64,000 bases of DNA from Halobacteriovoraceae bacterium (GCA_018646195.1 JABGVH010000199.1:8619-72618), one strand, 5' to 3'. Positions 3,110 through 41,779 are shown, counted from the stretch's first letter. Numbers and translations are program-made. Notes: generated from the sequence alone by a model not told the origin.

Positions 3110-4054
3110 ATGGCCGGAATGGCGGATCAATATATCTTAGGTTTAGACATTGGCGGCACTAAAATTGAGGCCGCCCTCTTTACAGCGGATGTCACCACTG
3201 GCCCAATTTCCAGCAAAAGGATCGCCACCGAAAGAGAGCGCGGCTACCAGAATGTATTAGAACGGCTTTCCCAATTGATAATCGAACTCTTGGCCGAGAA
3301 TTCGATTGCCTGGCCCTCACTTAAGGCCATAGGCGTTGGGCTGCCCGGTACAGTGGACCCCCAAAAACAGGTAATGCTCAATGGGAACTCCCAAATTTTC
3401 ATAGGAAAGAGTTTTGCCAAAGACCTCAATCAGTATTTTGAGTCCCCTGTCGAAATTCTATGTAATAACGACGCCTCCTGTTTTGCCCTGGCCGAGGCCA
3501 AGCTTGGCGCCGGGCTCAAGTACCGTGAGCAGTTTGGAATTCCTCTCTCGCAGCAAATCTCGATAGGAATTATTTTGGGAACCGGCTGTGGCGGAGGCAT
3601 AATTTCTAACGGCAAAATTCTCAATGGCCAAAATGGCGGCGGCGGGGAAATCGGCCACTCGACGCTGATAAGCAACGGGCATTCGTGTTACTGCGGTAGA
3701 AAAGGCTGTGCTGAGCAGTATCTCTGTGGACCTGCACTAGAGAGAAGTTATGGCGAAAAAATAGCCGCGCGGGAACTCTTTGAAAGGGCCGGGGCCGGTG
3801 AGCAGAAGGCGATCGATTGCCTGCAGAGCTATCAGAAAAATTTAATCGAATTTCTTACTAATCTAACCAGTATTTTTGACCCCCACTTTTTTGTCCTTGG
3901 TGGCGGCCTATCTAAGCAAGCCCTTCTTTACCAATCGCTTGAAAAGGGACTACATGCCCAAACTTTTGTCCCGCAATCTAACCCTGTGGTTTATCAGCAT
4001 AAAGTCTCCGATTCAGCTGGAGTCATTGGCGCCGCCCTTTTAACGCTCCCCTAA
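3110..4054 (+). CDS. ROK family sugar kinase (glucokinase / N-acetylglucosamine kinase-like)
   Basis: ATP-binding start LGLDIGGTKIEAALF and the ROK zinc motif GHSCYCGRKGCAEQYLCG. 314 aa. Confidence 0.85.
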   Translation: MAGMADQYILGLDIGGTKIEAALFTADVTTGPISSKRIATERERGYQNVLERLSQLIIELLAENSIAWPSLKAIGVGLPGTVDPQKQVMLNGNSQIFIGKSFAKDLNQYFESPVEILCNNDASCFALAEAKLGAGLKYREQFGIPLSQQISIGIILGTGCGGGIISNGKILNGQNGGGGEIGHSTLISNGHSCYCGRKGCAEQYLCGPALERSYGEKIAARELFERAGAGEQKAIDCLQSYQKNLIEFLTNLTSIFDPHFFVLGGGLSKQALLYQSLEKGLHAQTFVPQSNPVVYQHKVSDSAGVIGAALLTLP

Positions 4055-6401: not shown

Positions 6402-6602
6402 CCACTATTCCAGGCGCCACTAAGATTAAAGTAATTAGAAATCTAACCACATTTTAGAGACTTAGCCTTTTATACTCGAAGAAAATTCAAAATAGCTTAA
6501 AATCTTACTAAATGAATCGGTTACTGCTCCCGATGAGGTTGATAGGGGAATTCCCCGACTGCTGAGAAAGTGAGAGATGTGTTGAAAGTTAGAAAGTTGC
6601 TA

Positions 6603-9600
6603 ATGATTCATATTATGGCCCAATTCCTATTGCTAGGTTCGGCCCACGCCTTTCCCTCCTTCCCTTCCTTTATTACAAAATTTTTCCAGACAGATCTAGA
6701 GGAAGACCAGAAGCCAAAAGCGCTGCAACCCTGTGTCTATCAAAATGCCTCCTGGGTTTATAAGCTGGCCAATTACGCTCAAAAAAGTAGCTGTATGAAC
6801 TTAGAGCCAAAGCCCTACTGCCAATGTGTTGGCGTTCAAAAAGCATTTTACCTGTCAGCGGCTCAAGACAAAAAAATTGACCTCGCCCCCGAGCGGGCCT
6901 TGCAAGAATTGGCCTTTGTCTATAATCAAAAAACTCAAGACCAAGGGCGAAAAATAAAAATCAAAAATAGTCTGGCCTCATTGGTGGAGTTCCAAGCCGC
7001 CAATGGAATTCCAGTCGGCTGCTTAATAAAGGATGATAATCCAGATTTTGATCCTCAAACAAAACTCAATGAGCATGCAAAAGATTTAAATAGAAAGTAC
7101 ATTGAATTTCACAAAAAGCCTCGTAGCCCAGAAGAATATAAAAGTGATGAATATAAAGAGGAATTGAATGAAGTACTTTTCAACGCCGGTCCACTAAGAG
7201 AGTTCTACCAACAGCAAGAAACCTATAAATCAGTTGGGACCGAGAACTACAGTGAGGAACATAAGAATGACGCCCGGATTATTGCCGAACTTGCAAAGAG
7301 GGCCAATGCAGTCACTTTAGAATATAAAGAAGAAATTGCTGAAGGAGAATTCGTTCAGGCTGAGTTAGATAATATGATTGCTGATAAAATTGATAAATTT
7401 TTTACGGAAGATATATTTGATATTAATTCAATTAACCCTAGAAAGTCTTCATTTCTACACCTCCAAAATGTTTCAGGCGCTCAACAGCTTGGGAACTCTG
7501 CTCTCAGAGATCTTCTCAAGCATACTATGAGTAAATTTGGCAGTGACAAAGATTACAATGCTGAGGACTTTGAAAAATACATCCACGCTGAATTAATCAA
7601 ACCAGTTGCAGACAAAGATATAGAAATTAATACCATCCTAGGACAGTTGAATAGCAATATTTGTGACCGCCAAATAGCAGAGATAAAGGAGCTTATGCTT
7701 ATTGAAAGAAGCGATAGTGGCGAACTTTCGCTCCCTGCCTCAAATAATATCGACACCTCTATTGATTATATTAGAAAGCTATATTCCACCATTTCTTCTG
7801 ATGTTGAACCAGAAGTGAAGAAATTGGCCTATGACGAATTAGAGGAACTTAAAACTGTCTATTTTAAATCGTGGGAAGGGCGCTATCAATCTATAAATAA
7901 CGAAGGTGAGTTTTCAGCACTTAAGAAAAATCGTGAATTAGAACTTGGACTGGCCTTTTGTAAAAGTCGCCAAAGCTCGGAAGAATTTCCCGATATGTTT
8001 GAACGACTGGCCAAGAAACCAGCACTCTTTAGAAAATTTATGGAAATTCGATCAACTATCGGAGTCAAGCAAAGCAGAAGCCTCGAACTTACCAAGAAAG
8101 TTGGTGACCTCGAAAGTCTAATCAAAGATCACTCTCAAACCTTTAATCTCCAAATTGCTGGCCAATTAAAAATAGAAAAAGAAAGGACTCCTGGTCTTAC
8201 AGAAACACAGTACATAAAAAGAACACTAGATAAGATGGGCTGGAGACATAAAAGATTTCATGCAGAAATAGAGGGTAAAAAAAGGGCAAAAGATTTACTT
8301 ATAGCTCAAGTTACAAAGCTGAAAGACGAAATCAAATCGAGCGAAGAAAGTATGGTTGAGCTCTTTAAGGGCGTCATGACCGCCGAGGAAAGGGAAAAGA
8401 TTAGGCTCGAAGCCCAGTCCCAAAGTCCTCGCGCCGTCGATAAGACAATCGAAGAGATTGTTGGTGACCGCACCAACGGACTAGTTTATGAACAACGAAA
8501 CCTCACGATTAGTCCTGAAACACCTGCTGCAAAGACTACTAAAAAAACAGGTCCGACCATCTCTACCACCGTCCCCAATTATTCAATCTCAGTCAAATCC
8601 GAAAACGATTATCGCTATATTTCGATAGATCACGAGACAGGAAACGCAAAAGTGACTAGGATTAGTAACATTGAAATCGATACAGTAAAGCAAGAGACCG
8701 AAGTAATTCGAAAGACTGAGGGCTTTATAAAGAGAAATTTAGATTACTACTCACAAAAAGATTTAATAAACTTCAAGAGGTATAAGAAGGGCTATAGGAC
8801 TCGAGTCGATAAATTATTTACGAGAGTCGACAGAAAAACAGGTTTTAAGAAATCGGGAGACTTCACAAAGGCCTTAAGTAAAACAGACTTAAAAAATATT
8901 AGAGAAGTTTCTTCTGACAAAAAAATAAATAAATTGCAAAAAAAGGCTGCTAAGCCAGGAAGTGAAAAGCAAATCAGCAAAGAAGGCCTATTCACTGCAG
9001 AAGACCTTAGAAGTAGCAAAAAGAAGAAGGTAGCTAAACTAGAATCCAAGAAAAAAGATAAAATGCTCCTTCCTCAAGAAAAATTGGCCAAAGAGCAGGG
9101 TCTTATAGAAAAATTTATTCCAAAAGGGAAATTAGTTACTCCCCAGGTCCTTGAACAAAAACCAAATTTTGTACCAGTAGCTCCCCCGATTGTTAATCAG
9201 GACGATTTTGATGCTAAGAAAAAAGCACAAGACCAGAAAAATGCTGAGGCCATCTCGAAGCTTGAAAAAGAATTAGCTGATCGTAAGGCAGAGCTACAGG
9301 AATTAAGAAATGGTAAAACCAACAATTCCCTTGAAGAGAGTTCAACTGCAGAAGGCGAAGATCAGGGGGAAGAACTAATAAGTCAGAAGCAAGGTGAAGT
9401 TGAGCAAGTTGAAACTTTAATCGAAGAAGAGAAAGAGCGCCAGGCCATCACCTCACTTGCTCCCGCAGCAAATGAAAAATCAAAAGTAGGACAGGGTGAG
9501 GGCCAAAAAATAGGGGAATCAGGTGATCGCAAGCTTATCCCAACGACTGACTCTGGGCAGAGTACACTCAATGGAGCCACTAGAATCAATACCAATGACA

Positions 9601-10019
9601 ATTCTGTTTATGTCGATAACTCAACCCCTATTCAAGAAAATGCCTATACTGCTGCAGAGGGGCAGATTACAGACAATTATATAAATTATATAAATTCCCG
9701 GAGCCAGTCTCAGACCGATCTAATTCTAACAAGCACACCTCCAAGAGAAGGTGTTTCCAGGTTTATTCCACCCAGTTCAGTCAACGTTTTCAATAAAACC
9801 AGCCTGGAGTCCTATATTGGGAATTTAAAAGAGGCCAATCCTGGTCAAAGTTTTGCAATTCAGCTTGAGGATGGCCAGTTTCTGGTAGTAGAAGCTGAAT
9901 CAGCTGAAGACCTCGCGGAAAAAGCGAGGTTGTTGAAGCTAGAGCAGCAAAGAATCCAAATAGAACGCGCCAAAGTCAAAAAACTCAATCAGACAGTCCA
10001 AGAAGGGACGAAGCAGTAA
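6603..10019 (+). CDS. Large secreted coiled-coil protein, unknown function
   Basis: The ORF opens at 6570 (GTG). The ATG at 6603 gives the signal peptide MIHIMAQFLLLGSAHA. A Cys-containing head is followed by ~1,000 aa of Glu/Lys-rich sequence. No enzymatic motif recognised. Confidence 0.6.
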   Translation: MIHIMAQFLLLGSAHAFPSFPSFITKFFQTDLEEDQKPKALQPCVYQNASWVYKLANYAQKSSCMNLEPKPYCQCVGVQKAFYLSAAQDKKIDLAPERALQELAFVYNQKTQDQGRKIKIKNSLASLVEFQAANGIPVGCLIKDDNPDFDPQTKLNEHAKDLNRKYIEFHKKPRSPEEYKSDEYKEELNEVLFNAGPLREFYQQQETYKSVGTENYSEEHKNDARIIAELAKRANAVTLEYKEEIAEGEFVQAELDNMIADKIDKFFTEDIFDINSINPRKSSFLHLQNVSGAQQLGNSALRDLLKHTMSKFGSDKDYNAEDFEKYIHAELIKPVADKDIEINTILGQLNSNICDRQIAEIKELMLIERSDSGELSLPASNNIDTSIDYIRKLYSTISSDVEPEVKKLAYDELEELKTVYFKSWEGRYQSINNEGEFSALKKNRELELGLAFCKSRQSSEEFPDMFERLAKKPALFRKFMEIRSTIGVKQSRSLELTKKVGDLESLIKDHSQTFNLQIAGQLKIEKERTPGLTETQYIKRTLDKMGWRHKRFHAEIEGKKRAKDLLIAQVTKLKDEIKSSEESMVELFKGVMTAEEREKIRLEAQSQSPRAVDKTIEEIVGDRTNGLVYEQRNLTISPETPAAKTTKKTGPTISTTVPNYSISVKSENDYRYISIDHETGNAKVTRISNIEIDTVKQETEVIRKTEGFIKRNLDYYSQKDLINFKRYKKGYRTRVDKLFTRVDRKTGFKKSGDFTKALSKTDLKNIREVSSDKKINKLQKKAAKPGSEKQISKEGLFTAEDLRSSKKKKVAKLESKKKDKMLLPQEKLAKEQGLIEKFIPKGKLVTPQVLEQKPNFVPVAPPIVNQDDFDAKKKAQDQKNAEAISKLEKELADRKAELQELRNGKTNNSLEESSTAEGEDQGEELISQKQGEVEQVETLIEEEKERQAITSLAPAANEKSKVGQGEGQKIGESGDRKLIPTTDSGQSTLNGATRINTNDNSVYVDNSTPIQENAYTAAEGQITDNYINYINSRSQSQTDLILTSTPPREGVSRFIPPSSVNVFNKTSLESYIGNLKEANPGQSFAIQLEDGQFLVVEAESAEDLAEKARLLKLEQQRIQIERAKVKKLNQTVQEGTKQ

Positions 10020-24950: not shown

Positions 24951-24966
24951 TGGCATCATTCTGGCA
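24951..24966 (+). promoter_or_regulatory. Sigma-54 (-24/-12) type promoter candidate upstream of flp
   Basis: TGGCATCATTCTGGCA matches TGGCAC-N5-TTGCA with correct GG-to-GC spacing (G24952 to G24964 = 12 nt). It lies 39 nt upstream of the flp ATG. The SD GGAGG is at 24991-24995. Confidence 0.35.
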
Positions 24967-25004
24967 TCAATGCCCATCGTAGTTTCAATAGGAGGACTTC
25001 AAGC

Positions 25005-25187
25005 ATGCTAAAAGTAATTCGAGGAAAATTTAAGTCAGAGAAAGGCCAGGGTGTCATGGAATACATCATAATCTCAAGCTTAGTGGGAATATTTTGCCTG
25101 GTCGCAGTAAAGCAATTTGGAAATGTAGTTCAAAAACGTGTTTTAAATATGAAAGAGCAAATAGTTGAGAATATTCCAGTTAACTAA
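25005..25187 (+). CDS. flp: Flp-family type IVb pilin
   Basis: 60 aa. The leader ends at ...SEKG, followed by QGVM-EY and a hydrophobic helix (EYIIISSLVGIFCLVAV). This is the G-x4-EY Flp motif. A strong SD lies upstream. Confidence 0.7.
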   Translation: MLKVIRGKFKSEKGQGVMEYIIISSLVGIFCLVAVKQFGNVVQKRVLNMKEQIVENIPVN

Positions 25188-25483
25188 TGTCTATTATAAC
25201 TCAACTTGGATTCATCTCATTGGCGCTTTGGTGTGTTTTCCAAATTACTGAAAGCATTACCGATTCTCTTTGTAATCAAAAATTTTGGTCTAAATCCATA
25301 AGAACGCATCTCTCCTCTTTTCATGTCACGAAAAGAAAGAGGTTTCATTTTAAATCATGCAATAGACATGAAACATTAATCAGAAAAATAAATACTTTTC
25401 AGAGCAAAAGTACCTCCAAAAGTAAAAAATCATTTAGCATTTTTATTGCTACGAAAACGGGGCTTGATGCATATAAGAAGTGA
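25187..25483 (+). CDS. Small membrane protein, unknown function (Tad operon member)
   Basis: The ATG overlaps the flp stop (TAATG at 25185-25189). It has one hydrophobic segment (LGFISLALWCVF) and a basic tail. No family recognised. Confidence 0.35.
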   Translation: MSIITQLGFISLALWCVFQITESITDSLCNQKFWSKSIRTHLSSFHVTKRKRFHFKSCNRHETLIRKINTFQSKSTSKSKKSFSIFIATKTGLDAYKK

Positions 25484-26078
25484 AAGAGGTAGTATAACTT
25501 TCCTTGGACTATTATTCGCCTTATTCATAGTAAGCTCTACTTTGATCCACTTGTATACACTTTCACAACTACACATCAAAACACGAAATAAAATTAAGAT
25601 ATACCTATGTTTCAAAAGACAGATTAAATTAACAAAAAATTATCTAAGTAAGATGGGGAAACTAAATAAGCTAATCAGTTATTCCTACAAGGCATCTTTT
25701 ATTCCAGCCACGTCAGCAATTTCAAAAGTGACCCACAAGTCACTAATAATATCTCAGCGAATATTTCATGCATCAGTTTTGAAAAACATATCACTTCTAA
25801 AAGATTGTCCCTTTACTAGCCGAGTTAATCACCTTAGATCTTTGCCTTACCAACGTCGATTAGGAATATTTCTCAAACGACATTTAGATGGTACTGCGAA
25901 ACTGAGAACTCATAGATGGAAAATGAAAACAAGTCATTCAATACTCAATTTTTATCTTCAAGTAGATATGAAAGTAAAAAATCGATTTTCAAATTCTCTT
26001 TTCGCTACAAAAACAAAAGAAGTTCGGAAAAGGGTGAAGCCATACTTGAATGGATGGTCTGGATTTCATTTCTATTAA
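25446..26078 (+). CDS. TadE/TadG-like pseudopilin candidate
   Basis: The N-terminus MHIRSERGSITFLGLLFALFIVSS resembles the TadE-like leader plus hydrophobic helix. The likely start is the ATG at 25467. The rest is basic and unassignable. Confidence 0.4.
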   Translation: MLRKRGLMHIRSERGSITFLGLLFALFIVSSTLIHLYTLSQLHIKTRNKIKIYLCFKRQIKLTKNYLSKMGKLNKLISYSYKASFIPATSAISKVTHKSLIISQRIFHASVLKNISLLKDCPFTSRVNHLRSLPYQRRLGIFLKRHLDGTAKLRTHRWKMKTSHSILNFYLQVDMKVKNRFSNSLFATKTKEVRKRVKPYLNGWSGFHFY

Positions 26079-26179
26079 CTTTATTACTATTTAATTTAGA
26101 TATACATCAAAAATTTAAATCTAAGAGAGTTTCATTACAAAGGAGTTTTGAGCTTGAATGGGATAATATCAAGCCCTAA
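25916..26179 (+). CDS. Second TadE-like pseudopilin candidate
   Basis: Contains SSEKGEAILEWMVWISFLLTLLLF (TadE-type motif). It overlaps the previous ORF by 163 nt in another frame. No alternative ATG/GTG/TTG start lies closer to the motif. Confidence 0.3.
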   Translation: MENENKSFNTQFLSSSRYESKKSIFKFSFRYKNKRSSEKGEAILEWMVWISFLLTLLLFNLDIHQKFKSKRVSLQRSFELEWDNIKP

Positions 26180-26606
26180 AAAGGCAATCCAAATTTTAAA
26201 ATTACGATTCTCCCTAGCGATACTAATTAGCAACCTGTCATTGGCAATATTGCTGTGGCCGAGCAAACGGCCGCTAATCGTACAATCAAACCCAAAGAAA
26301 CTCAGACCTGGGCATAATTTAATTACCCTGCCTCTGAAAAACTTCGTCCCCTTTCAGACCGGTCAAAAAGAGGTAGCGGTAAGTCTATATAGTGATTCAA
26401 AAAAAATCATAGTCCCTAAAGCTTATGTCAAATCAAAGAAGATCTCTTCCAGCAATAATGAAAATATAATTTTTTTAGTAGAATTGCCTAGTAAGTACCT
26501 ATTAAAAATAATAGAGCTGAATTCAAAGTCATTATTTGCTTATCCACCGTCTAATATTTTAAAAACTAGCAAAAAAAGGAAATATAATTATGAATTTATA
26601 TTTTAA
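26148..26606 (+). CDS. Minimal CpaB/RcpC-like pilus assembly protein
   Basis: N-terminal TM segment (LAILISNLSLAILLW). The following pattern LITLPLKNFVPFQTGQKEVAVSLY...IIFLVELPSKYLLKIIELNSKSLFAYP resembles the RcpC C-terminal domain. An in-frame TTG at 26154 sits 8 nt after AGGAG. Confidence 0.4.
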   Translation: MSLNGIISSPKKAIQILKLRFSLAILISNLSLAILLWPSKRPLIVQSNPKKLRPGHNLITLPLKNFVPFQTGQKEVAVSLYSDSKKIIVPKAYVKSKKISSSNNENIIFLVELPSKYLLKIIELNSKSLFAYPPSNILKTSKKRKYNYEFIF

Positions 26607-26922
26607 CTTTTGGATTATACATTTTTTATTATTGGTTCTTTTGATTCAACCTATACATGGCCGAGAGGTTATATTGATCAATTTTGATCAGGATTCTTCT
26701 GAACCAAAGGCCCATAAAATACATCAGATCATTACGGAGAAACTTTCGATTCCAAAAGAGTTAGTCAAAACACAGAAAACAAAGGACCCCTGTGTTGAAC
26801 AAAGTCTTGTCTTCTTGCAAATATGTATCACAAACAAAGGACAGGTATATTATCCCGTAATTAAAAGGGCTGAACTAAAGCGGACATTTGCAGTTTTTTT
26901 GGAGGAAAGAAATGAAAATTAA
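26590..26922 (+). CDS. Small secreted protein, unknown function (Tad operon member)
   Basis: 110 aa with signal peptide MNLYFNFWIIHFLLLVLLIQPIHG and two Cys. It overlaps both neighbours. No family recognised. Confidence 0.35.
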   Translation: MNLYFNFWIIHFLLLVLLIQPIHGREVILINFDQDSSEPKAHKIHQIITEKLSIPKELVKTQKTKDPCVEQSLVFLQICITNKGQVYYPVIKRAELKRTFAVFLEERNEN

Positions 26923-28366
26923 AAAATTCTATTTCTCGTGGATCACAAACTTAGGAGTAGTTCCACGGTTTCTATCAGAAGCTTTTCTACGTTTACCAGC
27001 AGACTTTTTCTTATTGGCCCTGCGATTTTTTGTTACACGTGTATTTGAAACCATATCTAAACTCCTGAGAGATTTTAAAACTTTTAATAAGATCAAGTAT
27101 TTACCTATTTGGCTGCTTTCTGTCAATTGCGCGACAGCTGAAGTGCTAAGAAATCCGCAACATATTATAATCTCGAGAGGTGAGCACCGGGAAATCAGCG
27201 TCCCTAGACTGGAGAAATTCACTGTGGGGAATAATGACACGCTGTCCCATAAGCTTTTCAAAGTCCGCTCTATTCTTCTGATAAAAGGTAAAAAAATAGG
27301 TTACAGCGAAATTGTAATCTGGAAAAAGGGCTGAATTAAAGAAATTTATCGAGTCTATGTTCTCTCCAAAAAACAACACCTGAAACTACTTCATCTAGTT
27401 CAGGCACTCGAGGGACTAGGATTAAATACAGAACTCAAGGGTCCCCTGGTTCGAGTGTCTGGAGTGATAGCGAGCCTTCATGAGTATAAGTATATATTGC
27501 GCCTGAACAAAGAATGGAAAGACAAAATTCACTTCGAAGTTAGGCTTTCAAAAAAGCTTAGAAACCTAGTGATTGGCCGAGTTTATCATGCGATCCTCAG
27601 CGAGTTTATAGATGATATAGCCTGCCGAGCTGAAGGAATCAAAATTTTCTGCCATTATTCTGAATCTCAACCTCCTTCTCCATCAATTCGAAAACATCTT
27701 CAAAATTCATATGGCGTAAAATTTATATCTCTAAATAGAAATATTAAGTCAAAAAATTACAGATTACGTTTAAAATTAATACAAATTGAAAAACTAGATG
27801 GGGAAGAGATTTCTTTAGGCCTCGATCGACTATCGGGCTCATTAGATGAGCTTTTCAACTCTGGCGTAGAAGGAATAATTAGAAAAAATAAATTACTCTT
27901 AAGCCGTAGGCAAGTAAAAATTTCTACTTTGGCTGAACCACAATCTATCATGAGGTTGAATTCTCCTCTAGCAATTCAGGTTGGATCTCAAATCCCAATA
28001 AAGACTAAGAATGACCTTGCAGGCTTATCCACTACAGAATGGAAGTTTGTAGGTCTTAACATAAAAGTTATCGCAGAAAGGATTGGTGACAATTTTAAAA
28101 TAAAATATACTACTGAATTTTCACGGCCAGGAGAAGGAGGCTCTTTGACTGGCAGTAAAGAGATTTCAAGTGCAATAGTTCCATTAGGGAAAGCAGTCGA
28201 GCTCTTCCAGATAACATTTCAAACTAGTGGCGAAAATAACTCTAGACTTCCGTGGTTATCAAAGATCCCGCTGCTCGGAAAAATTTTTGAATCTAATTCT
28301 AAACAAGCAATATACAAGAATATAAGTGGTGTTGTTATTCTAGAGGATGTAAGTGAACCAATATAG
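26912..28366 (+). pseudogene. cpaC: CpaC/RcpA-type secretin interrupted by one in-frame TGA (27332-27334)
   Basis: ORFs 26888..27334 and 27455..28366 are in the same frame (567 nt apart), and nothing but one TGA separates them. Translation across it reads ...IGYSEIVIWKKG*IKEIYRVYVLSKKQHLKLL...VRVSGVIASLHEY. The upstream part matches the pilus N-terminal (T2SS-T3SS_pil_N type) domain. The downstream part carries the secretin signature LPWLSKIPLLGKIFESNSKQ. The ATG at 26912 follows GGAGGA at 5-nt spacing. Confidence 0.6.
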
Positions 28367-29489
28367 GAAATATTCAAATGAATTGAGAAGGCAAATAAAA
28401 CTATCGATGGATCAGGGAATTAATATTTCATTTGAGACAATCAAAGAAAAAATTACTTCTGTTCTCGATTTGTGGGGGCTGTCTGAGGATGAAGAATCCG
28501 ATTTATTTATTCTGTACTCAAAGCTTACGAACTGGAGCGCGCTAGAAAAATTTCTCGTAACCCCAGACCTAACTGAAGTTCTACTTCACTCATATTCATA
28601 TATACAAGTCGACACTTTTAGCTCTCATGGACTATTAAACTATGAAATAAGTTTTGAGAATGAGGAAGACTTACAACTTTCAATTGAAGTTTTTGCATTC
28701 AAAAATAGCCAATCTTGGAATAGCTTAGACCCATTCAAAAGTTTTTATTCCATTATTTTTAAAAGAAGTTTTAGGGTTACGTTAATACATGGATCATTGT
28801 GTTCAAATGGATCTCCCAAAATATTTTTTAGACGTACAAAAGAAGAGTTCCTTAGTATTGATTCTTTTACTAACACCATTGACCAGAAAAAATGGCTCGA
28901 GGAAAAAATTAGAAAGAAATCAAATATTATTATTAGTGGTGCTACAGGATCTGGAAAAACAACATTAATGAATTCCTTTATCCACAATATTAATATTGAA
29001 GAACACTTAATTTTATTAGAGGATGTACATGAATTTCCTGGTAAAGATCCACATATCTCTTGCCTTCTTAGCGGAAAAAAAACTCTCGTTGATTATTGCC
29101 ACTATGCACTTCGCATGCGCCCTGATCGCATTATGATTGGGGAGTTACGTGGAGCTGAGATCATTCCCTTTTTTCTTTCCATGAATACAGGGCACAAAGG
29201 GATGCTGACAACTCTTCATGCCAACTCTGCAAGTGACTCGATTGAGCGCCTGGGAACTCTATTCGCACTTTATAGTAAATCTAAAGATCTTCCTTACGAA
29301 AAGGTATTTTCTTTAATTTGCCAAAACCTTGATTACATAATTTTTATGGAAGAAAAGAGAATTGTTGAAGTAATTAAAATACTTGGAGCAGATGGCAATC
29401 GATCAATCTTTCAAAAAGTACCAGAGTTTAATTTGTTAGAAGATGGAGCTTTTCAAGCCATTCCCGACCTTCACTTAGGGGGACCTTGA
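28353..29489 (+). CDS. cpaF: CpaF/TadA-type pilus assembly ATPase (T2SSE family)
   Basis: Walker A ISGATGSGKTT, then LILLEDVHE, IMIGELRGAE and the His box NTGHKGMLTTLHANSA. 378 aa. Confidence 0.85.
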   Translation: MNQYRKYSNELRRQIKLSMDQGINISFETIKEKITSVLDLWGLSEDEESDLFILYSKLTNWSALEKFLVTPDLTEVLLHSYSYIQVDTFSSHGLLNYEISFENEEDLQLSIEVFAFKNSQSWNSLDPFKSFYSIIFKRSFRVTLIHGSLCSNGSPKIFFRRTKEEFLSIDSFTNTIDQKKWLEEKIRKKSNIIISGATGSGKTTLMNSFIHNINIEEHLILLEDVHEFPGKDPHISCLLSGKKTLVDYCHYALRMRPDRIMIGELRGAEIIPFFLSMNTGHKGMLTTLHANSASDSIERLGTLFALYSKSKDLPYEKVFSLICQNLDYIIFMEEKRIVEVIKILGADGNRSIFQKVPEFNLLEDGAFQAIPDLHLGGP

Positions 29490-32273: not shown

Positions 32274-33134
32274 TTATTCAATTAAAAAGAGTTGGCCGAA
32301 GGAATATAAGAAATAAAGGTAACTACCTAGAAAAAAGAAGCTCAGACAGAAGAATTTTGATCCATTCAGGAGTTTGAGATAAAGCTCAAACCGTTCCTGC
32401 CATAAAAACTGAAGCTCAATTAAAATTTCATTTAGAAGTTCAGAAATTCCCCTGCCCTCATCCCGCCACCGTCGAAGTCCCGCTTCAAAACGCCACAGTA
32501 TTGGCTGACTCCAGCGAGTCTTACAAGTATGAATTTGTCGCATGTCGACATGGGCCAGTATTACTTCTTGGCTCAGGCTGACCTGAGAAAGACAGTGAAA
32601 GGTCATTAAATTTTTGTAAAGTAATGAAAAATTTTTAAATATCAGCGCTCTTATAAATTTATCCATTACCCAAAAAAATACAAACCCCACTCCTTGAATG
32701 AGAAATACCGACATAATTTTACCCGGCATTTCTCTTTCAACCATTTTTTGGCCAATATACATAAAAACCCAGGCAATTAAAAAAGCTAATATAAACTGGA
32801 AATAGCCCCCTACAATCGCTGCACTTAGCTTTTTCCTCCATCTTAGCTCGTGCTGTAAATCTTGCTTGAGACGGTTCAATGGAACCTTTAAGGGAGCACC
32901 AAGGTGCCGACCATGGGATAGCATTTCTTCTACCAGACTGGAGTAAAAACTAAACCTAGGTACTGCTCCCGCACCAGGGGAGCCTGATAAATATTCCACC
33001 AATTGCTCTCCTGGCTTGGCCATAAACCCTTTCTTATTTCTTAAAAGTAGCGGAAAGATTGGCGAGAAACACGCTTCAGGTAGCAAAAACGGGAGTCCTA
33101 AAAGAATAAAAAAGGCACTTATTTTCAGTTCCAT
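32274..33134 (-). CDS. Polytopic membrane protein with two T2SSF-like repeats (candidate TadB/TadC-type platform protein)
   Basis: The ORF track extends to 33395, but the first 87 codons are Cys/Arg-rich junk. The ATG at 33134 gives MELKISAFFILLGLPFLL. Two repeats resemble the T2SSF domain end: HGRHLGAPLKVPLNRLKQDLQHELRWRKKLSAAIVGGYFQFILAFLIAW and DEGRGISELLNEILIELQFLWQERFELYLKLLNGSKFFCLSFFFLGSYLYF. This is pattern recognition only. Confidence 0.4.
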   Translation of the reverse strand: MELKISAFFILLGLPFLLPEACFSPIFPLLLRNKKGFMAKPGEQLVEYLSGSPGAGAVPRFSFYSSLVEEMLSHGRHLGAPLKVPLNRLKQDLQHELRWRKKLSAAIVGGYFQFILAFLIAWVFMYIGQKMVEREMPGKIMSVFLIQGVGFVFFWVMDKFIRALIFKNFSLLYKNLMTFHCLSQVSLSQEVILAHVDMRQIHTCKTRWSQPILWRFEAGLRRWRDEGRGISELLNEILIELQFLWQERFELYLKLLNGSKFFCLSFFFLGSYLYFLYSFGQLFLIE

Positions 33135-33209: not shown

Positions 33210-33503
33210 ATGAATACAACCACACCTGAATTTAACGCGACGCCAGTTGCACCTGTAAACCAAGATATAATGGGACCAGAAATTAAAATCAAGCACCTTG
33301 CAATTAAAATTAAAAAGCTCAACAAGCTTTGCAATCAACTTGACCCTTATCTGCCTATTCCGGAAGACACTCAAGCCGAACTTCGGGAGTTTCACATTAC
33401 AGATTTTTTTGACCCATTCACGATAACTAATAAACTTTTGGTTTTGCTAGAAGATTCCATTGAAGAGCTTCATAAATTAGAAGGTCACCCCGACACCAAA
33501 TGA
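33210..33503 (+). CDS. Small acidic hypothetical protein
   Basis: 97 aa. Its stop overlaps the start of the downstream methyltransferase gene (ATGA at 33500-33503), suggesting translational coupling. Confidence 0.35.
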   Translation: MNTTTPEFNATPVAPVNQDIMGPEIKIKHLAIKIKKLNKLCNQLDPYLPIPEDTQAELREFHITDFFDPFTITNKLLVLLEDSIEELHKLEGHPDTK

Positions 33504-39816: not shown

Positions 39817-41115
39817 CTAGTCCTGGCAACCACCCTTTTTAATTTTGCCCTGAATTTTAGGGTAGAGTTCGGCAGTCGAATTATCGATAAAGTAGAAATC
39901 GACTAGGCTGTTGAATAACTTTGGATCGCCGATTTTGGCGTAGCTTTTTTTGAGTTGGTTGAGGTTGCCAAACCCTTGGCCGGCGGCTTCTTCGCTATGG
40001 GTTTGGTTCATTAATTGGTAGAGGGTTGGTTGGCCCTTTGCTTCGAGTTCGAGGTTAATTAATTGCCAGACTCTGGCCGAGCCCCAAGCGTAGATGGAAT
40101 AGCTATTTGAGACGTCACGATTGACGAAATTGTGGAGGTTGTGTTGGTCATCTTGGTAGGCTTTGGGGTTGCGTCCTGAAAATTTGAGGTAGCGCTCGAC
40201 CTCAGTTAAAAGATGGCAGCGTTGTTTGTTGAGCTCCCCTTGTAATTGTTGCAACTTTTCATAGGTCGAACGGTCCTTATCAAAACAGTCCTCGATGACG
40301 CCCAGGTTGCTGACAACTTTGAGCATTTTCTCTGTTTGGGAGACACTTGACTTTAACTTGGCATCTAAGTCGCGTTTGAATGTTTGGTCATAGGCCAAAA
40401 ACCAAGTTAGTCCGTGAGCATATTGATTATCGACTCGATAAAGGCCTCCAAGCTCGTGCAGGCGGTGAGTAAAAGTATTATAGTCCTCATCACTGTTTAG
40501 CATGACGAAGGGTGGTCGATGAAAACCTGAGGCTTTAATTCCGGCCTCAATTCCTTCACGATTATTAAGCGCCGAAACTATTACAGGGGATTCCATACTT
40601 TTTGTTTTACCTGGGAATTTCTTGCTGAGCAGTCCCATTACTCGCTTAACTGTGGTGGCGTCAGGATTACCCTCTTCGGTGTAAATTGTATAACTACTTT
40701 GAGGCCCAGATTTTTCATTTTTCTTTTGGTATTTCTTTTTATCGAGAACAATCATCCCATCGTTACCGGTAGGAACAATATGTTGCTTGGGAAAAGTTTT
40801 TTCAGGAATTACTTTAAACTTAACATTTTTTCCACGATACCAAATAGGAGGAGTAATAATGGAGACATGCTTGCCCTGAATCCCGCGACCACGGATATCA
40901 ATTTCATCACTATTTTTAGTATCGAAGGGAACTGGATTCATGGTCCAACCTTTTTCAAATGGAACCCAGGCCCCATCTTTAGTCCGACCAATTTGCCAAC
41001 TATTTTCAATCTTTCGAATTTCCCAACTAGAATTATCTGGAAAGGTGCGCTTCTCTATTGAATACACATTTGTACTGAGCAATATGAAGGCAAAAAATAG
41101 AGATAGGGATTTCAA
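39817..41115 (-). CDS. Secreted protein, unknown function
   Basis: 432 aa with signal peptide MKSLSLFFAFILLSTNVYS. No recognised motif. 4-nt overlap with the upstream ORF. Confidence 0.5.
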   Translation of the reverse strand: MKSLSLFFAFILLSTNVYSIEKRTFPDNSSWEIRKIENSWQIGRTKDGAWVPFEKGWTMNPVPFDTKNSDEIDIRGRGIQGKHVSIITPPIWYRGKNVKFKVIPEKTFPKQHIVPTGNDGMIVLDKKKYQKKNEKSGPQSSYTIYTEEGNPDATTVKRVMGLLSKKFPGKTKSMESPVIVSALNNREGIEAGIKASGFHRPPFVMLNSDEDYNTFTHRLHELGGLYRVDNQYAHGLTWFLAYDQTFKRDLDAKLKSSVSQTEKMLKVVSNLGVIEDCFDKDRSTYEKLQQLQGELNKQRCHLLTEVERYLKFSGRNPKAYQDDQHNLHNFVNRDVSNSYSIYAWGSARVWQLINLELEAKGQPTLYQLMNQTHSEEAAGQGFGNLNQLKKSYAKIGDPKLFNSLVDFYFIDNSTAELYPKIQGKIKKGGCQD

Positions 41116-41654
41116 AATTCGAGCTGTTTAGAGAGCTCGACGGGTTTATCATTCCAACAAGGTTTGACTCGATTGATTCCAACTTGTGAAAAATCGACTA
41201 TTACTACCTCTTTAATAGCACTTTTATCTTCAGTGAGATTAAAACTTAGTATTGTGGAAACTTTATCTTCGGCGCCGGAGGCCTTGTAAAACACGACCCG
41301 CTGGCCTTTGATTTTGCCACTTTTATATTTCTCTTCAATTGTTTTAGTACTTAGTCTTTCATCTCCAGAAAAAGATACCTTAAAGGATTTTTTTGCCGCA
41401 TAATTCATGCCCTGCCCTGGCTTAGCGTAGAGGGTGACTTCGAAAGCTTTTTTATCAACTTTAATTGATAGGTCACACTTTGAAGCTGAAAGAGCATCTT
41501 TCATTTCAAACTTGCCACTTGAAAGTGCAGCACTCAGATCCTTGAATGCCGCTACAGAGGCATCTGTTGGTGTTTTCTCTGTAATCCACTCATCTCCCGC
41601 AAAAAGGGAAAAAGGTACTAGTGAAATAAGAAACAAAAATAGTAGTTTATTCAT
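41112..41654 (-). CDS. Small secreted protein, unknown function
   Basis: The ORF track start is 41681. The ATG at 41654 gives the signal peptide MNKLLFLFLISLVPFSLFA. Beta-rich body with two Cys. Confidence 0.5.
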   Translation of the reverse strand: MNKLLFLFLISLVPFSLFAGDEWITEKTPTDASVAAFKDLSAALSSGKFEMKDALSASKCDLSIKVDKKAFEVTLYAKPGQGMNYAAKKSFKVSFSGDERLSTKTIEEKYKSGKIKGQRVVFYKASGAEDKVSTILSFNLTEDKSAIKEVVIVDFSQVGINRVKPCWNDKPVELSKQLEF

Positions 41655-41779
41655 AATAACTCTCTGGAGACTATGCTTCAAAATTCTTTTCGACTTTCAA
41701 TCGTTTCTCTTTAATTTATTTTAAATTTTCGCTAATTACACCTGATTAAGCAGCCGAAAGGTCTTGCGAGGGTATAGTT

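Follow-up and report, generated by a model that had tools for sequence, protein, structure and literature searches.

Which machine is encoded by a compact cluster of pilus-like genes in which a pilin, a secretin and an ATPase are recognizable, and most of the smaller products belong to no known family? This question is raised by a locus of a Halobacteriovoraceae bacterium (GCA_018646195.1 JABGVH010000199.1:8619-72618), studied here in a stretch of 64,000 nucleotides (nt) that is called the window; all positions are those of the whole stretch. An earlier description of this DNA, the sequence-only reading, listed eight chained open reading frames (ORFs), and all of them are present where it had placed them. 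Two elements were absent from that description, a sigma-54-type promoter upstream of flp and a ninth gene, located antisense inside the cluster. The locus is a real, conserved and strongly diverged Tad-like module with several unannotated or family-less genes and an embedded antisense gene. We read it as a lineage-specific, very diverged, compact type IVc (Tad/Flp-like) machine that is separate from the canonical TAD (hit-type) locus, and assign this reading a probability of roughly 0.7. Its features are the following (aa, amino acids):

24951-24966, + strand: sigma-54-type -24/-12 element TGGCATCATTCTGGCA, of the form TGGCAT-N5-TGGCA, 39 nt 5' of the flp ATG
25005-25187, + strand: flp, a Flp-type prepilin of 60 aa with a G-x4-EY motif and a hydrophobic helix
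25187-25483, + strand: 98-aa pilin-like protein, the ATG of which has one base in common with the flp TAA
25467-26078, + strand: 203-aa pseudopilin-like protein (orf210), in a frame that is open from TTG 25446 (~203-210 aa)
25916-26179, + strand: 87-aa prepilin-like protein (orf87) with the site SEKG/EAILEW
26154-26606 (alternative start 26148), + strand: 150/152-aa bitopic protein, 150 aa long from TTG 26154
26590-26922, + strand: 110-aa secreted protein (orf110) with a signal peptide ending IHG/REV
26929-27054, - strand: 41-aa basic protein MVSNTRVTKNRRANKKKSAGKRRKASDRNRGTTPKFVIHEK, antisense, between orf110 and the secretin signal peptide
26912-28366, + strand: secretin ORF (Pfam Secretin) with a signal-peptide-like segment at 27092-27139
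27332-27334, + strand: in-frame TGA in the secretin ORF, with G at 27333 in the window
28353-29489, + strand: CpaF/TadA-type ATPase, 378 aa from GTG 28353 or 360 aa from ATG 28407
32274-33134, - strand: 286-aa polytopic inner-membrane protein, a T2SSF candidate outside the operon

Conservation of the module

The window was compared with contigs from Bacteriovoracaceae/Halobacteriovoraceae metagenome-assembled genomes (MAGs; loci L002-L012, L021, L087, L088 and L167-L174); the matches listed include no cultivated Halobacteriovorax or Bdellovibrio, and locus counts are lower bounds. Apart from local exceptions, the same gene order and the same flanks recur in at least 16 loci. The order is flp, a small ORF with a transmembrane (TM) segment, ORFs of ~200, ~87, ~150 and ~100 aa, the secretin and the ATPase gene. 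The 5' flank consists of adenylosuccinate lyase (ADSL), ManC and a SPOR protein gene pointing the other way, the 3' flank of a convergent aspartate kinase (AspK), ABC-F, a ~290-aa membrane protein, a ~95-aa ORF and an S-adenosylmethionine (SAM) methyltransferase. Each of the small proteins has orthologues detectable by BLASTP (E 6e-26 to 3e-3). Hidden Markov models (HMMs) built from the first ten loci find every small family in six additional loci, where the E values span 9e-14 to 2e-33 (200-aa family), 8e-11 to 5e-22 (150-aa family) and 1e-6 to 5e-28 (100-aa family).

The sequence-only reading had called members of the operon family-less, which applies to most of the small proteins. Among 79 orthologues of five small families, Pfam returned Flp_Fap as its sole family, in 4 sequences. 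NCBIfam gave zero matches with the window's own small proteins, as did a concatenated profile of four small families in a database of 5.8 billion proteins. The profile searches proposed earlier find Secretin (38 bits) and T2SSE (106 bits) in the window, T2SS-T3SS_pil_N marginally, and neither Flp_Fap, TadE nor RcpC. A lack of HMM support for the pilin, pseudopilin and CpaB calls had been named as evidence against them, and such support is indeed lacking in part. At NCBI, Flp and the 110-aa protein of the window are listed as hypothetical proteins MBT3586142.1 and MBT3586143.1. Their locus tags, HN509_14645 and HN509_14650, are consecutive, which suggests that the four ORFs between them are unannotated as proteins in this record.

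The ATPase and the secretin

The ATPase matches Pfam T2SSE with 106 bits. Its best sequence match in the PDB is Caulobacter CpaF, which is aligned over both its domains, N- and C-terminal (residues 57-356, 91 bits); matches to VirB11 structures comprise the C-terminal domain only. These results bear out the earlier call of a CpaF ATPase, and the CpaF/TadA-type ATPase typical of Tad systems is thus present. Scores against the NCBIfam TadA and VirB11 models are below their cut-offs. The protein is short at its N-terminus, where the first ~65-140 residues of CpaF are lacking. It belongs to a clade of 330-390 aa proteins that are 34-45% identical to it, as compared with ~30% for canonical CpaF. 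Among 27 clade members, no variation is seen at Walker A, the His-box and other motif positions. The named members derive from MAGs labelled Halobacteriovoraceae, Bacteriovoracaceae, Bdellovibrionales or Oligoflexia.

The secretin gene encodes a Pfam Secretin domain (38.3 bits, cut-off 27.5), and its PDB sequence matches are the secretin domains of GspD and RcpA. T2SS-T3SS_pil_N is marginal in the window protein (E 0.094) and weak in three populations of orthologues. The orthologous genes each form one uninterrupted ORF of 478-522 aa. A secretin of the RcpA/CpaC kind is therefore encoded, as had been proposed; the ORF in the window, presumed earlier to be one intact CpaC-type gene, is interrupted by the in-frame TGA, which is discussed below together with the integrity of this copy.

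The Flp pilin and three pilin-like proteins

For Flp, cleavage is predicted after G14 (EKG/QGVMEY), yielding a mature pilin of 46 aa. An orthologue occurs in every locus examined, and identities range from 41-69% in the first nine loci. Pfam Flp_Fap matches four of the orthologues (best E 6.9e-5), and the window copy stays below the HMMER reporting level. The pilin call of the sequence-only reading can be upheld on the directly readable motif, with weak profile support through these four orthologues; a Flp-family pilin, as expected of a Tad/type IVc system, is present. The family HMM also matches small ORFs 3' of TadA/B/C in two Streptomyces tad loci.

The 98-aa protein has a leaderless hydrophobic N-terminus and two cysteines ~30 residues apart. 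An ORF of 71-114 aa begins -3 to +8 nt from the flp stop in 16/16 loci, each with the same N-terminal hydrophobic segment and usually with the cysteine pair. Sequence relatives are detected only among close pairs (L021/L088, E 4e-13). Gene callers report the counterpart in L167, L168 and L169; in L002 and L007 it continues in frame into the orf210 homologue (250-253 aa). It is taken here as a real, fast-evolving pilin-like gene.

The 203-aa protein carries the leader MHIRSERG with the site SERG/SITFL, followed by a hydrophobic helix; there is no Glu at +5, and two cysteines are conserved. Its start is the one chosen by the gene caller on L086, a contig described below, and its orthologues are found with BLASTP E values of 6e-26 to 4e-6. 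In the 87-aa protein, which has orthologues in all loci, cleavage is predicted after G40 (SEKG/EAILEW), with Glu at +5 and a mature product of ~47 aa. Both proteins have an N-terminus of [QE][KR]G and a hydrophobic stretch, and hhalign places these N-termini in register with that of Flp (E 0.002 for the 203-aa and 0.024 for the 87-aa protein) as well as with one another (E 0.0002). Both had been described as TadE-like pseudopilins; the prepilin-type N-termini agree with a pseudopilin character, the Pfam TadE domain of TadE/TadF pseudopilins is not found in them.

The genes orf210 and orf87 overlap by 163 nt in the window (25916-26078). Over the six loci checked (L002:7400-7574, L003:7525-7663, L004:7455-7572, L006:7183-7369 and L007:7053-7224 besides the window), the overlap measures 118-175 nt, and its frame is -1 throughout. 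Neither frame looks constrained there, because substitutions within the overlap show no codon periodicity; the non-overlapping parts of both genes do show it. A programmed frameshift from orf210 into orf87, suggested by the constant -1 frame, was considered and rejected, since orf87 possesses its own prepilin site and the overlap is unconstrained in both frames.

A candidate RcpC-type protein and a predicted periplasmic accessory protein

The 150-aa protein has a TM helix at its N-terminus and, in the periplasm, a beta domain of ~95 aa that ends with YE[IF]xF. Orthologues were found in 14 loci, and the start at TTG 26154 agrees with ENA and JGI protein calls. RcpC is described as a periplasmic dodecamer that is anchored in the inner membrane and binds to the secretin RcpA (PMC12307814), and the topology of the 150-aa protein is the one described for RcpC in that study. 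An AlphaFold2 model was calculated from 10 sequences in total, with 9 database proteins used as relatives, and reached a predicted local distance difference test (pLDDT) score of 75.6. When 350,542 PDB chains were searched with this model by Foldseek, the top two matches were RcpC chains 9gzr_A and 9gzr_B (E 0.017 and 0.028, probability 1.00 and 0.99), aligned with TM-scores of 0.35 and 0.34; the third-ranked match had an E value of 0.54. The former CpaB/RcpC-like call is without HMM support, and is backed by the RcpC topology and by RcpC as top fold match at a low TM-score. A minimal RcpC/CpaB-type alignment protein is a plausible candidate identity on the basis of this model.

The 110-aa protein has orthologues in all loci. 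Its signal peptide is followed by a sequence with two conserved cysteines and without a lipobox. No Pfam or NCBIfam family matches it, and it is predicted to be a periplasmic accessory protein.

A conserved antisense gene at the start of the secretin ORF

All secretin ORFs begin with an apparent N-terminal extension, WIANLGVVPLFLLAAFLLAP, that is highly conserved; in the window the first ~48 secretin codons overlap an ORF on the opposite strand. The wobble positions of the two frames coincide. Mean pairwise identity is 0.60 in the antisense frame vs 0.50 in the sense frame. The antisense ORF starts with ATG in 16/17 loci (ATT in L010), and is preceded at the expected distance by a Shine-Dalgarno-like purine run in all 17; its end lies no more than a few codons from the motif GTTPKFAIH. 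Over the purine run the sense amino acids vary, while the nucleotides remain pyrimidine-rich on the sense strand. Wobble-only differences are synonymous in 95% of the cases when read antisense (1323 synonymous, 69 non-synonymous) and in 69% when read in sense (1134 and 520). Because identity, starts, the Shine-Dalgarno-like run and wobble synonymy favor the antisense frame, the 41-aa, very basic protein is, as judged by these comparisons, the selected coding sequence, and the open sense frame follows from its composition. The secretin start is therefore not fixed by the conserved extension, and the idea that this extension forms a conserved signal-anchor was abandoned, as selection acts on the antisense frame instead.

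The gene is also present at L002:8514-8642, L004:8550-8672, L170:4541-4678 and in 13 other loci, with products of 40-45 aa and the consensus MVSRTxVTxNRRxxKxKxxGxKRKAxNRNKGTTPKFAIHxEK; measured by mean pairwise identity, no gene of the cluster is more conserved. Gene callers report it in L170 and L172 and, as a longer version, in L169. The 41-aa protein has no match in Pfam, NCBIfam or the PDB. A K/A/P-rich C-terminal tail in three loci hints at nucleic-acid binding, and the position head-to-head with the secretin gene suggests a regulatory link. The gene provides a clean example of a conserved small protein hidden beneath a mis-extended ORF.

A sigma-54-type promoter

The element at 24951-24966 matches the sigma-54 -24/-12 consensus. 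In 7/16 orthologous loci a strict -24/-12 pattern lies at most 130 nt 5' of flp, as compared with a background of 0.0035 per 130 nt (17 matches in 623 kb, both strands); the pattern is thus ~120-fold enriched upstream of flp. A scan with the sigma-70 consensus, at chance level overall, yielded no site on the + strand from 24700 to the flp start. The terminator scan likewise gave chance-level results.

Missing components and a platform candidate

The sequence-only reading stated that no prepilin peptidase, TadZ or canonical TadB/TadC is encoded in or beside the operon, and ORF, motif and Pfam scans agree. The A24 peptidase motif GxGD[VM]K was found in no ORF of the 64-kb window or of 15 related loci; this pattern is crude, and a positive-control scan of canonical tad loci gave two likely true peptidases. 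A TadV/CpaA-type peptidase, as used by Tad systems, is consequently not seen within the window. Only three ORFs of the 64 kb are polytopic, those for DsbD, AcrB and the 286-aa protein. Pfam scans of the operon genes and of flanking ORFs, which together are part of the window's ORFs, gave no TadZ/CpaE. The flanking genes are housekeeping genes; beside the ATPase gene, where TadB/TadC would be expected, the next gene is the convergent aspartate kinase.

A T2SSF-like gene at 32274-33134 (- strand) had gone unmentioned when the adjacent platform genes were reported missing. It is located on the opposite strand, 2.8-4 kb downstream of the operon and beyond ABC-F, in 12 loci and the L171-L174 population; it was not found in the stretches available for L004/L005, L170, L009, L010 and L088. 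The window protein matches Pfam T2SSF with an E value of 0.002 (18.5 bits, cut-off 25.2). Within its family, T2SSF matches 12/105 members at E<=0.01 (best 1.2e-6), and no other family matches more than 2 members. An exhaustive search of representatives yielded 443 representative clusters, a word-index search 4 matches. The AlphaFold2 model (pLDDT 91.5) is all-helical with the arrangement TM-cytoplasmic-TM-TM-cytoplasmic-TM, and the two halves of the protein align in register (hhalign E 0.003). A divergent platform of the GspF/PilC/TadB-C kind is, by a small margin, the identity that these data favor. Public gene callers shorten the protein to 249 aa, by which the first TM helix is dropped.

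Comparison with Tad/type IVc systems

The Tad/type IVc systems, such as Aggregatibacter tad, Caulobacter cpa and Pseudomonas rcp-tad, have in common with the module a Flp pilin with G/xxxxEY, a CpaF/TadA-type ATPase, a secretin of the RcpA/CpaC type and additional prepilin-like proteins. They also share a bitopic periplasmic protein gene 5' of the secretin gene, with one gene in between, and the order pilin, pseudopilins, RcpC-like protein, secretin, ATPase. In contrast to these systems, the module is devoid of TadV/CpaA, TadZ/CpaE, TadD, TadG and adjacent TadB/TadC. Its ATPase is shorter by the ~65-140 N-terminal CpaF residues mentioned, its RcpC-like protein has about half the usual size, its pseudopilin-like proteins have no Pfam TadE match, and one pilin-like protein is leaderless. 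Its candidate platform, one protein of ~290 aa with a pair of short repeats, is encoded apart from the operon, and a small antisense gene is contained in the module.

The Kil system of Myxococcus xanthus can be likened to the module by description only, as a Tad-like apparatus in a bacterial predator. The Kil gene set is larger and includes a peptidase and platform proteins of its own.

Proposed mode of action

The sequence data establish which genes are present, that they are conserved, and what Flp, the secretin and the ATPase are. From these parts we infer the following steps, and likewise what the family-less proteins do and which protein is the platform. The sigma-54-type promoter would drive flp and the following genes. 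The Flp prepilin and the 203-aa and 87-aa prepilin-like proteins would be processed by a peptidase of the TadV type whose gene lies elsewhere in the genome, and the cleaved proteins, together with the leaderless 98-aa protein, may prime or cap a thin Flp filament. Assembly would be powered by the short CpaF-like ATPase, presumably as a hexamer, via an inner-membrane platform, which might be the T2SSF-like 286-aa protein encoded 2.8 kb away or TadB/C acting in trans. The 150-aa bitopic protein could form an RcpC-like periplasmic ring linked to the secretin, through which the filament would exit, and the 110-aa periplasmic protein would act as an accessory. By analogy with the Flp pilins of Bdellovibrio, the biological role is likely contact with or entry into prey.

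Several points weigh against reading the cluster as a complete Tad-like machine. Pfam RcpC and SAF match 0/15 members of the 150-aa family, and the RcpC fold match has a TM-score of only 0.35 in a medium-confidence model from 10 sequences. Pfam TadE matches 0/32 members of the 203-aa and 87-aa families (16 of them from the 203-aa family). For this genome, the scans made within the 64 kb available gave neither a peptidase nor a TadZ-like protein. The platform assignment depends on T2SSF matches below the threshold; hhalign comparison of the 286-aa family with TadB/C from canonical loci gave probabilities of at most 1.4%, and Foldseek of the model against the PDB returned long-helix noise only (BAR domains, TTYH). 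The TadB/C collection was seeded with two ~300-aa ORFs that follow a canonical 457-aa CpaF in L013, from a Bacteriovoracaceae MAG. Moreover, the 286-aa gene was not found near the operon in L004/L005 and L170, and its nearness elsewhere could reflect conserved chromosomal synteny only. The window secretin is interrupted by the TGA at 27332-27334 and has no in-frame ATG, GTG or TTG from 27054 to the signal peptide. Finally, the module is known from its sequence, from which the filament is predicted, and a part in prey interaction is inferred from work on Bdellovibrio.

A more specific proposal, held with low confidence, is that of a dedicated, self-contained and phylum-restricted minimal type IV filament apparatus for the 'non-TAD-associated' Flp pilins of predatory Bdellovibrionota. 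It would use four pilin-like proteins (one without a leader), a half-size RcpC, a two-repeat mini-platform with a gene outside the operon, and a short CpaF, with the 41-aa protein as a new regulator or cofactor. Relatives, which speak for the main reading as well, have three 'non-TAD-associated' flp genes outside a separate canonical TAD locus, e.g. in H. marinus SJ, and in Bdellovibrio predation requires 3/4 flp genes, among them the non-TAD-associated flp4 (PMC5430801). Such flp genes from BALOs, the group of Bdellovibrio and organisms similar to it, have in common with the module their position outside a canonical TAD locus. In strain HD100, these are flp3 (bd3297) and flp4 (bd4000), flp3 being silent and dispensable (PMC5430801), which limits its likeness to the module. 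A few gene numbers away from flp3 are bd3306 'pilQ' and bd3307 'cpaF' (PMC5430801, PMC3818213); this spacing, known from gene numbers only, would fit a layout of flp, small genes, secretin and ATPase. If the proposal is true, a second assembly module would give the orphan BALO Flp pilins a machine. The module would also mark out a nearly minimal set of genes for a Tad-type system in diderms, and its genes offer concrete deletion targets for prey-contact studies in marine predators.

The same machine might have another output than an adhesive pilus, namely a short pseudopilus or piston that serves secretion, contact-dependent prey killing or DNA uptake. This alternative, also held with low confidence, is in line with four pilin-like genes, a minimal envelope set and predatory hosts. 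It agrees as well with the Tad-like Kil pili, which are reported to mediate prey killing in Myxococcus (PMC12075869), and with Bdellovibrio Flp pilins, which are required for predation and not for adhesion (PMC5430801). However, the sequence does not separate these outputs, no effector or DNA-translocation gene (e.g. ComEC) is found nearby, and the alternative concerns what the machine delivers rather than its nature.

Integrity of the window copy

The copy in the window might instead be a decaying, non-functional remnant, in which relaxed selection would explain the low G+C content and the missing family matches. The in-frame TGA in the secretin ORF is in favor of this view. Genetic code effects do not account for the codon. 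The code is standard, because TGA terminates 11/52 long ORFs in the window, and readings of TGA as a sense codon or as selenocysteine were discarded on this ground and on that of a sister contig with TCA. This contig, L086 (ENA ERZ4200995, 5140 bp), is independent and 99.94% identical to the window, with 3 differences. At 27333 it has C, which creates TCA (Ser) and an intact secretin of 492 aa; the other two differences are at 27059 (A/G) and 29101 (A/C). Since one base separates the window from an intact allele in a contig of this identity, the TGA is either a nonsense allele of very recent origin or an error made in sequencing or assembly. If the base is real, this copy cannot export a filament.

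Two further observations are compatible with decay. The G+C deficit of the small genes is larger in the window than in any other locus compared (-0.079, other loci -0.05 to +0.016), and no canonical secretin start follows the antisense gene. The latter trait is, however, common to the window, L007 and L168; five loci have CATG, which provides an ATG on both strands, and others have plausible downstream starts. Likewise, the remaining ORFs are intact, the window ATPase keeps the residues that are invariant in the 27-sequence alignment, and the proteins are equally family-less in loci with every gene intact. Decay is thus an unlikely explanation.

Relation to the hit locus

The sequence-only reading regarded the operon, provided that the genome is that of a related predator, as the natural candidate for a counterpart of the host-interaction (hit) locus of Bdellovibrio bacteriovorus. 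There, the hit/TAD operon bd0108-bd0119 (locus bd0108-bd0121) encodes TadB (bd0110), TadA (bd0111), RcpA (bd0112) and RcpC (bd0113), with the RHS-like Bd0109 adjoining (PMC5430801, PMC3526173). H. marinus SJ has the syntenic region BMS0170-0184 with orthologues BMS_0180-0182, and the TAD loci of Halobacteriovorax and Bacteriovorax include TadV (PMC5430801, PMC3526173). The comparison with the bd and BMS loci was made by published descriptions (PMC5430801, PMC3526173, PMC3818213), not by sequence. A canonical CpaF does occur in the family, in L013, where the two ~300-aa ORFs mentioned above follow it.

Both clusters are Flp/Tad-like, occur in predatory Bdellovibrionota, and encode a secretin, an ATPase and a Flp pilin with GQG..EY, the latter as seen in the Bd0119 sequence (supplement of PMC5430801). 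Against the published layout, though, the module has neither the adjacency TadB-TadA-RcpA-RcpC-Bd0109 nor tadV. Its neighbors are SPOR/ManC and AspK/ABC-F, and no TadB, Bd0109-like or TadV gene adjoins it. The ATPase falls into a separate clade, the identity to canonical CpaF being ~30%. Expression of the published TAD operon depends on FliA (PMC5430801); the module, by contrast, is preceded by a sigma-54-type element. Neighbors, gene content and ATPase clade therefore differ, the proposed equivalence is not supported, and a Bacteriovoracia counterpart of the hit locus is highly improbable.

Base composition and origin

The hand counts of the sequence-only reading (16/60 and 19/60 G+C at 25381 and 26401, 31/60 at 3541) proved exact on recount. 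Positions 25200-27100 have a G+C content of 0.326, ~3 standard deviations below the window mean of 0.401 (standard deviation 0.025), and only 3/621 sliding 1.9-kb windows are lower, each overlapping the same locus. The composition is thus distinct, as supposed; a foreign origin is not indicated by it. Across loci, the operon G+C tracks that of the host from 0.28-0.56, mostly slightly under the flanks. Because it does so and the flanks are constant, the low G+C is no sign of import, and the module is old and vertically inherited rather than an island, and probably part of the core chromosome. That the module is a recently acquired foreign island, for which its rank as the lowest-G+C stretch of the window speaks, can practically be dismissed, given that its housekeeping neighbors are the same in at least 16 loci, that its G+C follows the hosts, that the window lacks tRNA genes, and that no integrase or transposase appeared among the flanking proteins checked for families. 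Scans with Rfam and for tRNAs found nothing relevant in the window, with zero tRNA genes.

Further observations

Elsewhere in the window, an ORF of 1149 aa (6570-10019, + strand) and ORFs of 431 and 188 aa (39817-41681, - strand) have no Pfam match at E<=0.001. Between the 286-aa gene and the SAM methyltransferase, an ORF of 97 aa (33210-33503, + strand) recurs in at least 10 loci with 37-57% identity (BLASTP); it matches no Pfam family. In a Pseudobdellovibrionaceae MAG (L032:7234-10792), a 415-aa secretin and a short ATPase of 399 aa are encoded directly 3' of aspartate kinase. Neither flp nor the small genes were detected beside this pair, which may represent, for the Bdellovibrio lineage, a relative of the module in reduced form.

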